Assembly: GCA_013389015.1 (NCBI GenBank)
Contig: JACAEE010000007.1
Span: forward strand, 9,159 to 73,158
Length of the DNA: 64,000 nt
Source: Hydrogenophilaceae bacterium
Lineage (GTDB): Bacteria > Pseudomonadota > Alphaproteobacteria > Caulobacterales > Aquidulcibacteraceae
Direction: 5' to 3'
In this document: positions 3,892 through 9,821 of the stretch, piece by piece
How the letters are laid out: each line of letters begins with the position of its first letter
Numbering within the stretch: the stretch's first letter is position 1
Made by a program: the position numbers and the translations under genes
Notes under the pieces: model-generated
Seen by the model: the letters and a program-made list of their open reading frames with translations, nothing else
Told to the model about the DNA's origin: nothing
Database searches by the model: none

Positions 3892-5181
3892 TTGGACCGC
3901 CGCTATTTTGATTCGGTTGAGACTGCGCCCCGACACGAGATCGAGGCGCGCCAATGGGCGCGCCTGCGTGAGCAAGTGCAGCATACGTTCGCACGTTCCC
4001 CCCTTGTGCGTCGCGAATGGGAGAAGGCCGGGCTGAGCCCGGACGACATTCGCTCAATCGATGATTTCAAGGCGCGGGCGCCGTTCATTGACAAGGCCGC
4101 GATCCAGGCCTTCCGCGCCGAGACCGGCGACCCGATGGGCGGGGTGCTGGCGGGGGACCTGAGCGAGGTCGCGCTCTACGGCACGAGTTCGGGGACGACG
4201 GGCGATCCGACCATGTTCGCCGAGAGCTGGACGGCGCGCGGGGAGATGATCTTCACGCCGCGCGACATCTGGGAGACGGGTCTCAGGCCCGGCGATCACC
4301 TGATCGACGTGCAGATGGTGATCCGCTCGATCGGGCGCCTCTATTTCCAGGACATGGGCGCGACCCCCATCTTCTTCCACCATGACGCCAGCGACGTGGC
4401 GCGGATGCTCAGCGCATGCGTGCGCTACCGGCCCACCTGGATGTTCCATATCAGCTCGCCGCTGATCTACGCGCTCGAGCGGATGGAGGCGGAGACCAAG
4501 GTCGATCTTCGCGACGCGTTCTCCTCGTTCAGGGGCGTGATCTATGGCGGCGAGCCAATGGGGCGCCACAACCGCGACCTGATGGAGCGCTGGGGCGTGC
4601 CGGTGTTCGAGTTCACCAGCCTCGGCGATTGCGGCACCGCCTGGGAATGCCAGGCGCGGGACGGATTCCATGCGTGGGAAGATCTCGTGCTGTTCGAGGT
4701 GATCGATCCGGTCAGCGGCGCGCCAGTGGAATCCGGCGGGCGCGGGGAGATGGTGTGCACGGCGCTGGTCGACAAGGTCGATCCGCTGATCCGGTACCGC
4801 TCCGGCGATCTGGTGCGCTGGACCAATGAAAAGTGCGCGTGCGGGCGCACGCATGCGCGCTATTGGCCGCTTGGGCGCGTCGGCGACGAAACGCTGGTCA
4901 ACGGGCGCAGCGTGATGCCGACCGATGTCTGGACGGCGATCGAAAGCGTGCCAGAGACCGCCGCGGGGCTGTTCCAGATCATTCGCCCGCAGCGCGACCT
5001 GAGCGAACTGAAGCTCCGCGTCGGCTATGACGGCCAGCCTGAGCTGAACGATCTCGCCGCGCGCGTCGCAAAGGCGGTGGAGGCTGCGACGGGCATTCGC
5101 CCCAACGTGGAGCTGATGCCCAACACCGAGATCTTGAAGTTCGGACCACCCCACAAGATTCCACGGACGACGCGCCAATGA
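3892..5181 (+). CDS. PaaK-like (phenylacetate-CoA ligase / coenzyme F390 synthetase family) adenylate-forming enzyme
   Basis: P-loop YGTSSGTTGDPT, PaaK-type C-terminal region (IRYRSGDLV ... CACGRTH ... GRVGDE), about 430 aa. The track ORF starts at TTG 3739. I prefer TTG 3892 (LDRRYFDSVETAP...), which has AAGGGA about 8 nt upstream, but the start is uncertain. Confidence 0.8.
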   Translation: MDRRYFDSVETAPRHEIEARQWARLREQVQHTFARSPLVRREWEKAGLSPDDIRSIDDFKARAPFIDKAAIQAFRAETGDPMGGVLAGDLSEVALYGTSSGTTGDPTMFAESWTARGEMIFTPRDIWETGLRPGDHLIDVQMVIRSIGRLYFQDMGATPIFFHHDASDVARMLSACVRYRPTWMFHISSPLIYALERMEAETKVDLRDAFSSFRGVIYGGEPMGRHNRDLMERWGVPVFEFTSLGDCGTAWECQARDGFHAWEDLVLFEVIDPVSGAPVESGGRGEMVCTALVDKVDPLIRYRSGDLVRWTNEKCACGRTHARYWPLGRVGDETLVNGRSVMPTDVWTAIESVPETAAGLFQIIRPQRDLSELKLRVGYDGQPELNDLAARVAKAVEAATGIRPNVELMPNTEILKFGPPHKIPRTTRQ

Positions 5182-5948
5182 GCACCGCCCCCCATTACGG
5201 CCTCATCGGCGGCGCGCCGAGCGACGCAAGCGCCGAAACGCTCCGGGCGCTCGAAGGCTACAATCGCGGGCACCGCAAGAATCCCGTCGTGGCCTGCGCC
5301 TCGGACATGTGGGCCGTCGGCTGCGCAGAGACGGCGGAAGGGCCAGTCGACTATCCCGTTTCATGGACCGACATCGAAAGCGACGAGGCGTGGGCGAAGG
5401 AGATGCTGGACCTCGCCGGCGTCGGCCGGGGCGATTTCGCGTTCTTCTCCTATATCTACTCGCGCTCCGCCCATACTTGGCCATGGCTGAAGATGGGGTT
5501 CGAACGCGGCGCAAGACTGGCGACGGGGATGCCGACGCAATGGGACGCCTATCGGCTGGAAATGTATTGCCGCCTGTTCGCGGTGAAGCTCGTCTTCGGG
5601 CTCACGCCGGAGGCGCTCGACGGACTAGAAGGCGCCGGCCATCGGCTGAGTGAGGTGTTCGGAAAAGTCGAGCGGATCATCGCCGTCGGCGAGGCGTGGC
5701 GGCGGCTGCGCGAGGCGGGCCTCGCCCCGTGGAAGCTGCATTGGCTGGGGCCGATCGTGGCGATCGATCCGTGCGACGGCGCCGGCGCGCGATTCGACTA
5801 CAAGCAATGGACGCTCGAAGGCGACGGCGGCCGATTGACGATCTCCAACGCCCTGCCCCGCGCCTGCGCATTCACTCGAACGCCGCTCGCCGCAAAGGGG
5901 CGGATCGGCGTCGCCGATGGCGAGCCTCGCTTGTTCATGGAAGAGTGA
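5178..5948 (+). CDS. hypothetical protein, translationally coupled to the PaaK-like ligase (possible P-loop-less PaaK N-domain relative)
   Basis: 256-aa ORF with ATGA overlap to the upstream stop. Codon bias matches its neighbours. I saw no recognisable catalytic motif, only weak by-eye resemblance to the PaaK N-domain core (GVGRGDFAFFSY ... GARLATGMP ... LVFGLTPEAL). Confidence 0.6.
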   Translation: MSTAPHYGLIGGAPSDASAETLRALEGYNRGHRKNPVVACASDMWAVGCAETAEGPVDYPVSWTDIESDEAWAKEMLDLAGVGRGDFAFFSYIYSRSAHTWPWLKMGFERGARLATGMPTQWDAYRLEMYCRLFAVKLVFGLTPEALDGLEGAGHRLSEVFGKVERIIAVGEAWRRLREAGLAPWKLHWLGPIVAIDPCDGAGARFDYKQWTLEGDGGRLTISNALPRACAFTRTPLAAKGRIGVADGEPRLFMEE

Positions 5949-8298: not shown

Positions 8299-9057
8299 AT
8301 GAGCTACGCCATCGATCTCAGCGGCAAGGTCGCGCTCGTCACCGGCGCCAGCCGCGGGCTGGGCAAAGCCATCGCCCTCGGGCTCGCCGGCGCGGGCGCC
8401 GATGTGATCGTCTCCAGCCGCAAGCTCGATGCATGCCAGCAAGTTGCGCGCGAGATCGAGGCGATGGGCCGGCGCGCGACAGCGATCGCGGCGCATGTCG
8501 GGCGCTGGGACGATCTCGACCGGCTGGCGGATGAAGCCTATCGCGCGTTCGGGCGCGTCGACATCCTGGTCAACAACGCCGGCATGTCGCCGCTCGCGCC
8601 ATCGAGCGTAGAAACCAGCGAGACGCTGTTCGACAAGGTGGTCGGCGTGAACTTCAAAGGCCCGTTCCGGCTCACGGCGCTGGTGGGCGCGCGCATGGCG
8701 GCGGGCGACGGCGGCAGCATCATCAATATCTCCAGCATCGGCGCGCTGAAGCCGAATCCGAGCGTGACGCCCTATGCCGGCGCGAAGGCCGCGCTCAACG
8801 CCATCTCGCTCGCCTTCGCGCAGGAATTCGCGCCGAAAGTGCGCGTGAACGTCGTGTCGCCGGGCGGATTCCTCACTGACGTCGCCAAGAATTGGGCGAC
8901 CGAAGACGAGGCGCGCGCCGTCACCGCGCTTTCCCGCTGGGGCGCGCCGGAGGAGATCGTGGGAACCGTGCTCTACCTGGCGAGCGCGGCCTCCTCCTAC
9001 ACCACGGGCGCCAATCTGCGCGTCGACGGCGGCGCGTTCTGGGATCGCAAGCCATGA
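8299..9057 (+). CDS. SDR family oxidoreductase
   Basis: ALVTGASRGLGKAIA, NNAG, and YAGAKAAL (YxxxK). Confidence 0.9.
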   Translation: MSYAIDLSGKVALVTGASRGLGKAIALGLAGAGADVIVSSRKLDACQQVAREIEAMGRRATAIAAHVGRWDDLDRLADEAYRAFGRVDILVNNAGMSPLAPSSVETSETLFDKVVGVNFKGPFRLTALVGARMAAGDGGSIINISSIGALKPNPSVTPYAGAKAALNAISLAFAQEFAPKVRVNVVSPGGFLTDVAKNWATEDEARAVTALSRWGAPEEIVGTVLYLASAASSYTTGANLRVDGGAFWDRKP

Positions 9058-9821
9058 GGCTGGAGGGAAAGATCGCCGCGATCACTGGCGGGGCAAGCGG
9101 CATCGGCCTCGCCATCGCGCGACGATTTGCGGCGGAAGGCGCCGCAGTGGTCCTGCTGGACCTCAATGAAGACGGTGAGCGAGAAGCGTGCGCTCTACGC
9201 GAAGCCGGGTTCCAGGCGCGGTTCATGCGGCTCGATGCGAGCGACGAAGCCGGCGTCGACAGCGCCGTCGAGGAGATCGAGAGATCGATCGGTCCGATCA
9301 GCATCCTGGTGTGCTCGGCAGGCGTTACGGGCGCCCCGGGGCCGTTCTACACAACCGACGTGGCGGTGTTCGAGCGCACTTTGCGGGTGAACCTGATCGG
9401 GCCGTTCCTGATCGGCAAGGCGGTCGCGGCGCGCATGCTGGCGGAGAAACGCGGCGGCTCGATCATCAACATCTCCTCCGTCGGCGGCCAGCTCGGCGTG
9501 GCGGACTCCTGGCCGTATTGCACCAGCAAGGCCGGGCTCGACATGCTCACCAAGACGATGGCGCTGGCGCTCGCGCCGCACGGGGTGCGCGTCAACGCCA
9601 TCGGCCCTGGCCCTACCGAGAGCCCGATGACGGCGCACATTCCGACCGAGGCGCGCGAGATGATGCTCTCGCGCACGCCGCTCGGCCGGTTCGGCGCGGC
9701 GGAGGAGATCGCGGGCGTGGCGTTATTCCTGGCGAGCGAGGAGTCCAGCTACGTCACGGGGCAAACGATCTATGCCGACGGCGGGCGCCTGGCGCTGAAT
9801 TATGTGATGCCGAAACGCTAG
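9054..9821 (+). CDS. SDR family oxidoreductase
   Basis: MRLEGKIAAITGGASGIGLAIA and YCTSKAGL. ATGA overlap with the upstream SDR. The upstream extension of the track ORF (8892) was rejected. Confidence 0.9.
   Translation: MRLEGKIAAITGGASGIGLAIARRFAAEGAAVVLLDLNEDGEREACALREAGFQARFMRLDASDEAGVDSAVEEIERSIGPISILVCSAGVTGAPGPFYTTDVAVFERTLRVNLIGPFLIGKAVAARMLAEKRGGSIINISSVGGQLGVADSWPYCTSKAGLDMLTKTMALALAPHGVRVNAIGPGPTESPMTAHIPTEAREMMLSRTPLGRFGAAEEIAGVALFLASEESSYVTGQTIYADGGRLALNYVMPKR

Follow-up and report, generated by a model that had tools for sequence, protein, structure and literature searches.

A block of six genes in a 64,000-nucleotide stretch of DNA assigned to a Hydrogenophilaceae bacterium (contig JACAEE010000007.1; the whole stretch is called the window here, and positions refer to it) probably encodes a catabolic cassette that sends a gamma-hydroxylated or gamma-oxo organic acid into beta-oxidation. 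The route would be the one known from the Pseudomonas putida lva operon and from mammalian ACAD10 and ACAD11, in which a hydroxyl group is phosphorylated and the phosphate is then eliminated; we put the probability of this reading at roughly 0.6. The genes occupy positions 3892-9821 and encode, in order, an acyl-CoA ligase of the PaaK family, a protein of 256 residues, a kinase with the aminoglycoside phosphotransferase (APH) fold, a protein with the acyl-CoA dehydrogenase (ACAD) fold, and two short-chain dehydrogenases/reductases (SDR1 and SDR2). The chemistry and both of the enzyme families that carry it out are already known. What is new is the pairing of the ligase with a second protein, the layout of the cassette, and the family to which that second protein, called the partner below, belongs.

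The six genes are co-directional and tightly coupled, as a first-pass annotation of this DNA had described: all lie on the forward strand, with spacings of -4 to +10 nt. The stop codon of the ligase gene and the start codon of the partner gene share an ATGA (5178-5181), and the TGA of the partner gene directly abuts the ATG of the kinase gene (5948/5949). Ten nucleotides that contain a GGAGAGG ribosome-binding site separate kinase and ACAD, three nucleotides separate the ACAD from SDR1, and the two SDR genes again overlap in an ATGA (9054-9057). The gene for a third SDR (SDR3) converges on SDR2, and the stop codons of both overlap at 9818-9821. The region is GC-rich (about 66-69%), and the GC fraction at third codon positions is 0.80-0.87 in the called frames of the cassette. 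The motifs listed by the earlier annotation, namely HGDYSLAN (APH residues 213-220), DWE (236-238) and ADGPTEVH (ACAD residues 381-388), can all be read in the translations.

The ACAD and the kinase

The ACAD carries all three ACAD domains recognised by Pfam. Among all PDB sequences, its best matches are 4hr3 of Mycobacterium abscessus (266 bits) and the ACAD11 proteins of mouse (236-238 bits) and human (231 bits), while the best canonical ACAD scores 144 bits, a gap of 94 bits to ACAD11. It is 41% identical to 4hr3 and 37% identical to the ACAD domain of ACAD11, and shares 20-24% identity with the five other ACADs encoded in the window.

Proteins of the ACAD10/11/LvaC group are marked by a catalytic Asp (D753 in ACAD11) in place of the usual Glu (PMC12440821). 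In addition, a helix with R626, H634 and R637 (the "HCMR" motif) holds the 4-phosphate and is missing from conventional ACADs (PMC12440821). In the window protein, D382 within the sequence LADGPTEVH aligns with D753, and the residues R255, R260, H263, A264, M265 and R266 align with R626, R631, H634, C635, M636 and R637 of mouse ACAD11, respectively; the PDB index is one off from the numbering of the paper, and the correspondence was checked on the kinase-dead chain 8v3u, which has Ala at the catalytic Asp. The window motif reads HAMR where ACAD11 has HCMR, with the same change from Cys to Ala as in 4hr3, and the phosphate-helix motif is identical in the orthologues from three related loci (L007, L008 and L014).

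The five other ACADs of the window (17563-18747, 34185-35384, 35388-36617, 38865-40262 and 44169-45440) provide an internal control. None of them has the phosphate residues of ACAD11, and where canonical ACADs have their C-terminal catalytic Glu, these five carry Gly-Gly or, in one case, Phe-Gly. Judged by its sequence, the cassette ACAD has every feature of the phosphate-eliminating group and appears to be a relatively distant member of it; LvaC itself is 56-62% identical to ACAD11 and ACAD10 (PMC11342911). The bacterial branch that includes the window ACAD is very large, with 7998 or more clusters at E<1e-50, every one of which has a generic name.

The kinase matches the Pfam APH family with 132 bits. 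Just six PDB sequences match it at E<1e-3, led by 9o56 (158 bits), 3dxp (156 bits) and two chains of the mouse ACAD11 kinase domain (113-117 bits), and the matches that follow ACAD11 score 41 bits or less. The NCBIfam models for APH(3'), thiamine kinase and capreomycin kinase reach 21-22 bits against cut-offs of 205-390 (21 against 205 for APH(3')). The protein retains the catalytic residues D215, N220 and D236-W-E, along with R54 of strand beta3 and E71 of helix alphaC. D215 and N220 align with D220 and N225 of ACAD11, R166 corresponds to the CoA-site residue R176, and R70-E71 corresponds to an Arg-Glu pair of ACAD11; R86 of the published ACAD11 numbering had no exact match in the PDB sequence index. 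Likewise, R54, E71, D215, N220 and D236 align with R61, E78, D214, N219 and D234 of 9o56. These comparisons group the kinase with the ACAD10/11 type rather than with the antibiotic kinases. In scores and in residues, then, the pair looks as the first-pass annotation had supposed, that is, like a split version of the ACAD10/11 or LvaA/LvaC module and not like an ordinary dehydrogenase beside an antibiotic kinase.

Conservation of the cassette

The arrangement did not arise by chance, as its gene order recurs, with protein identities of 43-88%, across six or more distinct genomes or contigs. Near-identical or identical metagenome contigs (L001-L006) carry the 256-residue protein of the window, and the more distant relatives of this protein all come from metagenome-assembled genomes (MAGs) of Caulobacterales, Hyphomonadaceae or Terricaulis. 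A block that runs from a TonB-dependent receptor through the ligase, partner, kinase, ACAD, SDR1 and SDR2 to SDR3 is kept in L007, L008, L009/L017, L014, L015 and L016. In L014 the receptor sits on the opposite side of the cassette, and the contig starts at the partner gene, so the ligase lies outside the available sequence; in L015 there is about 1 kb extra between SDR1 and SDR2. Within these Caulobacterales-type loci, identity to the window proteins is 74-88% for the ACAD, 72-85% for the kinase, 74-83% for the ligase and 43-75% for the 256-residue protein. A transporter gene and a regulator gene, discussed below, usually come after the cassette.

One Rhizomicrobium MAG (L021) has the five-gene core only (ligase, a partner of 253 residues, kinase, ACAD and SDR), with different flanks. 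The core is thus syntenic in MAGs of Caulobacterales, Hyphomonadaceae and Rhizomicrobium and, as far as sampled, the cassette is limited to uncultured members of these three groups. The adjacency of kinase and ACAD is kept in every copy. Moreover, purifying selection acts on each of the six genes, as dN/dS is below 0.4 throughout (range 0.08-0.39, Nei-Gojobori method against the window; Table 1), although dS is about 1 and near saturation, so that the ratios are approximate.

The MAG in which an identical 256-residue protein is encoded is labelled "Hydrogenophilaceae bacterium" at NCBI (protein HXY28_00330), and the close relatives of the cassette are all MAGs of Caulobacterales, Hyphomonadaceae or Terricaulis. 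A mis-binned contig or horizontal transfer of the cassette may explain the mismatch.

The ligase and its truncated partner

The ligase scores 19.7 bits against the Pfam AMP-binding model, below the cut-off, and it matches the PaaK, F390 and FlxY-type models of NCBIfam far under their cut-offs. It is not a PaaK equivalog, as it reaches 113 bits where TIGR02155 calls for 646 and 146 bits where NF041878 calls for 700. Its best PDB matches are the 2-hydroxyisobutyryl-CoA synthetase HCL (6hdw, 141 bits), BT_0428 (134 bits) and PaaK1/PaaK2 (108-110 bits). The PaaK-like character of this protein had been taken to point to an aryl- or cycloalkanoate-like substrate, a suggestion that loses its footing because HCL and BT_0428 outscore both PaaK enzymes. 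With an intact P-loop (SSGTTGDPT), CxCGR motif and C-terminal domain, the last ending in an invariant GPPHKIPR, the ligase should be active. Its TTG start codon is kept in five related loci. The subfamily comprises at least 808 clusters at E<1e-30, and its source name in Brevundimonas, Algiphilus, Hydrocarboniphaga, Rhizomicrobium and others is "phenylacetate--CoA ligase family protein".

What is the 256-residue protein encoded directly after the ligase? No Pfam or NCBIfam model matches this protein, which the first-pass annotation listed as unknown; by its family and predicted fold, it appears to be a truncated, P-loop-less paralogue of the ligase that goes with the ligase and not with the kinase. 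A word-indexed search found 24 relatives at 57-100% identity, and an exhaustive profile search of 1.84 billion proteins yielded a family of 243 representatives at 50% identity, whose members, among those listed, are mostly 210-245 residues long. The family alignment yielded a confident AlphaFold2 model (pLDDT 84, pTM 0.81), for which PaaK1, PaaK2, BT_0428 and HCL were the top Foldseek matches, with E values of 2e-9 to 1e-8. The TM-score is 0.60-0.63 on the query and about 0.4 on the target, as the match covers the N-terminal large domain only. In a profile-profile comparison with hhalign, residues 86-310 of the ligase subfamily align with residues 37-243 of the partner (E=2.6e-5, probability 75%). 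This moderate match appears only between profiles: hhalign found none between the single ligase sequence and the partner alignment, and a sequence-profile search of the PDB with the partner family returned nothing significant (best E=0.23).

These fold and profile matches mark the partner as a probable truncated paralogue of the large N-terminal domain found in PaaK-type enzymes. Where the ligases have their P-loop, the partner reads AETAEG-PV; the ribose-binding Asp of the A7 GD motif is replaced; and the protein ends at the hinge, without the C-terminal domain that carries the A10 Lys. Some distant members of the family still show a C-x-C-G remnant at the hinge. Because the P-loop, the ribose-binding Asp and the C-terminal part have all been lost, the partner is predicted to be incapable of adenylation by itself. 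It is nevertheless no pseudogene, as the family has 243 members of uniform length, D69, D123, R126, R132, G141, G191, W211 and other residues are invariant, and dN/dS indicates continued selection (0.16-0.39).

The contexts in which the partner occurs are informative. In each of eight independent contexts outside the close relatives of the window, it lies directly downstream of a ligase of this subfamily; these ligases are 46-60% identical to the window ligase where measured, and stop and start codons often overlap. Seven of the eight are without kinase or ACAD: L011, L012/L013, a JGI contig (for which no DNA is available), an Azonexus MAG (L018), Brevundimonas (L019), Algiphilus (L020) and Rhodococcus jostii RHA1. 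The eighth is the Rhizomicrobium locus L021, with the full cassette. The partners of L011, L012, L018, L019 and L020 were assigned to the family by a hidden Markov model built without them (E values of 3e-38 to 5e-61). In R. jostii RHA1, the pair is found on plasmid pRHL2 (L022, NC_008270.1 286902-288937), where RHA1_RS42125, named "phenylacetate--CoA ligase family protein", is overlapped by RHA1_RS42120, a "hypothetical protein". The surrounding cluster of P450, ferredoxin, aldehyde dehydrogenase and AMP-ligase genes has the same layout as the metagenomic locus L011; an IS256 transposase gene and a truncated P450 gene adjoin the RHA1 pair. A narrower partner alignment found 4 loci in 185,579 species genomes, a scan that rests on two exact peptide patterns and undercounts distant members.

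Since ligase and partner are adjacent in contexts that have neither kinase nor ACAD, they constitute a two-gene unit of their own, and the window cassette joins this unit to a second unit of kinase, ACAD and SDR. The idea that the partner is an analogue of LvaB that serves the kinase was rejected, since clusters without kinase or ACAD also have the partner behind the ligase.

PaaK enzymes dimerise through their N-terminal domains, as seen in the PaaK1 and PaaK2 structures. By analogy, we propose for the partner the role of a non-catalytic subunit that associates with the ligase. A larger claim can be built on this proposal, and we advance it tentatively, at odds clearly short of even. The ligase and its truncated paralogue would be the obligate subunits of a heteromeric acyl-CoA synthetase, the one catalytic and the other a pseudo-enzyme, in an architecture new to the ANL superfamily. 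The pair is distributed over Alpha-, Beta- and Gammaproteobacteria and Actinomycetota, where on this reading its setting would be catabolic islands for bulky lipids. In the cassette, this enzyme would pass a gamma-hydroxy acid of an unrecognised class (for example, lactone-derived, alicyclic or derived from sulfated lipids) to the kinase and ACAD. No report of a PaaK-like ligase with a second subunit turned up in the literature.

Certain genes recur around ligase-partner pairs in unrelated genomes (L001, L008, L009, L019, L020 and L021). They encode Sulfotransfer_3, DUF1214/DUF1254 and PF10118 metal hydrolase proteins, a sulfatase (L008 and L019), Ap4A_phos_N/ATP_transf proteins (L008, L019 and L021), a 4HBT thioesterase, transporters of the major facilitator superfamily (MFS) and TonB receptors. 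This set hints at the metabolism of sulfate esters or sulfated lipids.

A predicted pathway and its alternatives

How might these proteins act together? The acid would enter through the TonB-dependent receptor in the outer membrane and then through an MFS transporter in the inner membrane. The PaaK-family ligase would form the CoA thioester, probably in a heteromer of which the truncated paralogue is the non-catalytic member. At least one of the SDRs would then set the 4-position as an alcohol for the kinase, either by reduction of a 4-oxo group or by epimerisation via the ketone. The kinase of ACAD10 favours the R enantiomer (PMC11342911), a possible rationale for the presence of more than one SDR. 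Using ATP, the APH-fold kinase would phosphorylate the 4-hydroxyl group of the acyl-CoA, and the ACAD would oxidise the C2-C3 bond, expel the phosphate and re-reduce the product to a 2-enoyl-CoA, in the manner of the cycle of oxidation, phosphate loss and re-reduction proposed for ACAD10 (PMC11342911). The 2-enoyl-CoA could be handled in ordinary beta-oxidation by other enzymes of the window, the rest of which encodes nine or more enoyl-CoA hydratases, another five ACADs, a FadB-like fusion, thiolases, two ligases of the classical kind and a family III CoA-transferase. The sequences show the order of the genes and its conservation, the families of kinase and ACAD, the presence of each catalytic, phosphate-binding and CoA-binding residue defined in ACAD11, and the fold and degeneracy of the partner; the substrate class, the parts played by the individual SDRs, the heteromer, the transport steps and control by IclR are inferred.

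Several points weigh against this proposal. The family placement of kinase and ACAD is anchored on ACAD11, 4hr3, 3dxp and 9o56 and not on LvaA and LvaC, and the window ACAD is just 37% identical to ACAD11, with HAMR instead of HCMR. No open reading frame (ORF) for an LvaB-like small protein was found within or around the packed genes, as judged by the packing of the ORFs and not by homology, and a remote copy may exist elsewhere. The homology of partner and ligase is read from likeness of fold and a profile score of moderate strength (probability 75%), and the heteromer is hypothetical. Nor is the ligase specific to the chemistry of kinase and ACAD, as the ligase-partner pair also occurs without them; another enzyme might make the acyl-CoA, such as the CoA-transferase encoded at 15503-16735. 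Finally, the closest solved relative of the kinase, 9o56, acts as an alkylglycerol kinase in vitro, and membership of the kinase family, for which two activities are reported, does not by itself fix the substrate.

Perhaps the most sceptical position is that an ordinary alpha,beta-dehydrogenating ACAD happens to lie beside an antibiotic or small-molecule kinase of the APH type, with the 256-residue ORF as a decaying remnant of a duplicated ligase gene. Pfam, taken by itself, does show only generic APH and ACAD domains, and the source names are "acyl-CoA dehydrogenase family protein" and "hypothetical protein". It is difficult to see, however, how this position could accommodate an Asp in place of the canonical Glu together with the phosphate triad of ACAD11, the 94-bit lead of ACAD11 over canonical ACADs, or antibiotic- and thiamine-kinase scores of 21-22 bits against cut-offs of 205-390. 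Synteny kept at 43-88% identity and a partner under selection, with invariant residues and 243 members of uniform length, likewise speak against it, and we consider a chance pairing of this kind very improbable.

The activity of 9o56 raises a more specific question, whether the window kinase might be a CoA-stimulated kinase of lipid alcohols (of the 1-O-alkylglycerol type) that acts on a free hydroxylated lipid, while the ACAD has a separate role. The numbering of 9o56 (R61, E78, D214, N219 and D234-W-E236) fits the Caldalkalibacillus thermarum enzyme of PMC13596139; this enzyme and several prokaryotic homologues phosphorylate 1-O-alkylglycerol (chimyl alcohol) in vitro, some of them needing acetyl-CoA (PMC13596139). 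The structure that fits this alkylglycerol kinase is also the best solved match of the window kinase, at 158 bits, and the cassette lies inside a lipid-catabolic island. Yet the kinase is linked to an ACAD that retains the Arg/His/Arg triad beside its catalytic Asp, a triad that serves no purpose unless the phosphorylated product is an acyl-CoA. Moreover, the operon is headed by a CoA ligase, no glycerolipid or ether-lipid genes were noticed among the domain annotations of the window, and the two activities are not exclusive, since the same mammalian kinase domains also phosphorylate 4-hydroxyacyl-CoAs. A lipid-alcohol kinase is therefore quite unlikely here. Close coupling to an ACAD whose phosphate pocket is intact, the leading CoA ligase and the lack of ether-lipid genes in the window make 4-hydroxyacyl-CoA the likeliest substrate class of the kinase by sequence and context, if not the sole candidate.

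A further alternative keeps the logic of phosphorylation and elimination and changes the substrate: the hydroxyl group could be on a ring or a branch, or the 4-hydroxy acid could derive from a gamma-lactone, with three SDRs and nearby hydrolases preparing the substrate. Three SDRs are conserved with the cassette, as against one in the lva operon, and Amidohydrolase_2 genes lie nearby (12824-14130; intact in L009). The Amidohydrolase_2 family includes lactonases. The neighbouring genes (P450, ChsH2-type OB-fold, SnoaL, NMO, and many enoyl-CoA hydratases and ACADs) are typical of alicyclic, steroid or terpenoid catabolism, and the ACAD, at 37% identity to ACAD11, belongs to a branch of at least 7998 homologues at E<1e-50. 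On the other side, no sequence feature identifies the substrate and the family matches of the SDRs are generic, while the ACAD has the same residues as ACAD11 for placing C2-C3 and the 4-phosphate, which argues for an ACAD11-like regiochemistry. We regard such a substrate as unlikely. The most probable explanation is that the cassette sends a gamma-hydroxy or gamma-oxo acid into beta-oxidation by the lva/ACAD10-11 route.

SDRs, transport and a candidate control region

Table 1. Genes and intervals of the cassette and its flanks. Positions are those of the window; dN/dS values are relative to the window genes.
Feature	Positions	Strand	Domain matches	dN/dS
TonB-dependent outer-membrane receptor	1409..3655	-	Plug and TonB_dep_Rec_b-barrel domains	
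Divergent control region, 236 nt between receptor and ligase	3656..3891	.		
PaaK-family (ANL superfamily) acyl-CoA ligase, 429 aa, TTG start	3892..5181	+		0.10-0.22
Ligase partner, 256 aa, predicted non-catalytic	5178..5948	+		0.16-0.39
APH-fold kinase of the ACAD10/11-N-terminal/LvaA type, 349 aa, predicted 4-hydroxyacyl-CoA kinase	5949..6998	+		0.13-0.18
ACAD-fold protein of the ACAD10/11/LvaC/FadE2 type, 428 aa, predicted 4-phosphoacyl-CoA phosphate-eliminating enzyme	7009..8295	+		0.08-0.10
SDR1, 252 aa, classical, candidate 4-oxo/4-hydroxy oxidoreductase	8299..9057	+	adh_short 179 bits	0.10-0.15
SDR2, 255 aa, classical, translationally coupled to SDR1	9054..9821	+	adh_short_C2 225 bits	0.17-0.19
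SDR3, convergent	9818..10555	-	adh_short_C2 222 bits	
MFS transporter, anion:cation symporter-like, probable inner-membrane uptake	10728..11993	+	MFS_1 151 bits	
IclR-family regulator, candidate cassette regulator	12030..12821	+	IclR_C and HTH_IclR domains	

SDR1 directly follows the ACAD in all copies of the cassette, including that of Rhizomicrobium. SDR2 is kept in the Caulobacterales-type loci, and its Rhizomicrobium copy is not co-directional; SDR3 is kept at the same position at 56-87% identity. The SDRs match their families only generically, as the NCBIfam subfamilies for SDR1 illustrate. A substrate assignment through NCBIfam was rejected, as the ChcB2-like model reached 205-217 bits against a cut-off of 350, no better than the glucose-1-dehydrogenase or FabG models.

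The divergent TonB-dependent receptor noted in the first-pass annotation is indeed present and is syntenic in the Caulobacterales-type loci; it adjoins the cassette in L007, L008, L009, L015 and L016, and none is found next to the Rhizomicrobium copy. A dedicated role in uptake, as that annotation suggested, would be consistent with this position. The MFS transporter scores below the cut-offs of the aromatic-acid/H+ and galactonate-type subfamily models and is syntenic in L007-L009, L015 and L016. The IclR regulator is 85-88% identical and syntenic in L008, L009, L015 and L016.

The interval between receptor and ligase contains a palindrome, TATCGC-N4-GCGATG, at about 3773-3789. Two copies of this sequence make up an imperfect inverted repeat of 25 nt (arms 3764-3788 and 3795-3819), and a further inverted repeat is found at 3828-3865. 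Six related loci share, without variation, a TATCG...CGATG core and the blocks TTTTCAA and GACGCTC. These repeats look like a candidate operator, perhaps for the IclR regulator encoded downstream of the cassette. A scan for sigma-70 promoters found no consensus in the region, terminator-like matches were no more frequent than expected from shuffled sequence, and no Rfam family was found in 3400-12200, control region included.

The surrounding window

Other genes of the window deserve brief mention. The Amidohydro_2 gene at 12824-14130 (reverse strand) is split into overlapping ORFs (12824-13570 and 13435-14295), while its L009 orthologue is a single gene of 409 codons. The split appears again in L001 and L003, contigs from separate samples, and may be a frameshift, a pseudogene or a shared assembly error; the enzyme, if a lactonase, could supply 4-hydroxy acids. 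An ORF of 746 codons at 14495-16735 (forward strand) is an artefact of high GC content, in which the last 410 or so codons (from about 15503) encode the family III CoA-transferase and the earlier ones overlap a genuine gene for an enoyl-CoA hydratase on the other strand (14510-15316).

At 24187-25533 (forward strand), an ORF of 448 codons is joined by an ATGA overlap to a gene for a LuxC-type acyl-CoA reductase (24187-26915 region). It has no Pfam or PDB match, and a close relationship to the ligase was ruled out at 22% identity. With SGSSGK where the ligases have their P-loop, its product may be an acyl-protein synthetase, LuxE-like but divergent. In the Rhizomicrobium locus L021, the cassette likewise adjoins a LuxC gene.

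Two of the window ACAD genes are adjacent (34185-36617), as in the heteromeric ACADs of the steroid type. Together with ChsH2-type OB-fold proteins (46241-46615), SCP-x-type thiolases, P450 and SnoaL, the five further ACADs give the island a resemblance to pathways for the catabolism of alicyclic compounds or steroid side chains.

Significance

The route by phosphorylation and subsequent elimination is a recent discovery, characterised in few bacteria (the P. putida lva operon and the Burkholderia pseudomallei pair) against thousands of uncharacterised members of the ACAD branch. The window cassette would be a second and clearly different operon design for the 4-hydroxy acid route, conserved enough to serve as a genomic marker, and its uptake and regulatory genes could help to identify the natural substrate. 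The partner represents a previously unannotated family that is also found in a tractable model organism, R. jostii RHA1. Should it act as a subunit for regulation or specificity, the label "phenylacetate--CoA ligase family protein" misses half of the enzyme in hundreds of clusters.

Comparison with known systems

The nearest operon for comparison is lvaABCDE of P. putida KT2440 (Rand et al. 2017, as described in PMC12440821 and PMC11342911), which we compared with the window through these published descriptions and not through the Lva sequences. In both operons, an acid-CoA ligase and an SDR are joined by an APH-fold kinase and an ACAD of the ACAD10/11 type that each stand alone, and both would convert a 4-oxo- or 4-hydroxyacyl-CoA through a 4-phosphoacyl-CoA to a 2-enoyl-CoA. 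The lva-like character claimed for the window operon in the first-pass annotation thus stands for the ligase, SDR, kinase and ACAD roles, and falls short in that an equivalent of the small protein LvaB is lacking. The window ligase belongs to the PaaK family and comes with a truncated paralogue, whereas the lva ligase is of the LvaE type (classical AMP-binding, FadD/Acs-like). In addition, the window has three SDRs instead of one, and a TonB-dependent receptor, an MFS transporter and an IclR regulator in place of the regulatory and transport genes of lva.

The ligase aligns nearly full-length with HCL (6hdw), BT_0428 (4r1l) and PaaK1/PaaK2 (2y27/2y4o), and shares their P-loop, CxCGR hinge motif and C-terminal domain. 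Unlike these solved enzymes, for which no record of a partner gene was found, it belongs to a subfamily of its own (SSGTTGDPT, GPPHKIPR), with the partner gene next to it in the contexts examined. The kinase has a beta3 Arg, alphaC Glu, Asp, Asn and DWE identical to those of the ACAD10-kinase homologue 9o56 of C. thermarum. It differs from that enzyme, a CoA-stimulated kinase of 1-O-alkylglycerol, in its setting, an operon with a CoA ligase and an ACAD and no ether-lipid genes near.

Split pairs of kinase and ACAD in P. putida and B. pseudomallei carry out the chemistry of phosphorylation and elimination (PMC11342911, PMC12440821), and the B. pseudomallei proteins can substitute for the ACAD10 domains in vitro (PMC11342911). 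Like this pair, and like 3dxp (a Cupriavidus APH protein) and 4hr3, the window proteins are stand-alone bacterial members of the two families. By the available reports, as distinct from their gene contexts, none of these has been described with a PaaK-type ligase or a truncated paralogue. Compared with the fused ACAD10 and ACAD11, the window has two separate proteins, no HAD domain, HAMR rather than HCMR, and about 37% identity in the ACAD. Nonetheless, both domains of mouse ACAD11, known from cryo-electron microscopy (8v3u/8v3v), are homologous to the window proteins (113-117 bits for the kinase, 236-238 bits for the ACAD), and the kinase Asp, Asn, DWE and CoA-site Arg, the catalytic Asp of the ACAD and its R...R-I-H-H-x-M-R phosphate-binding helix are all retained.

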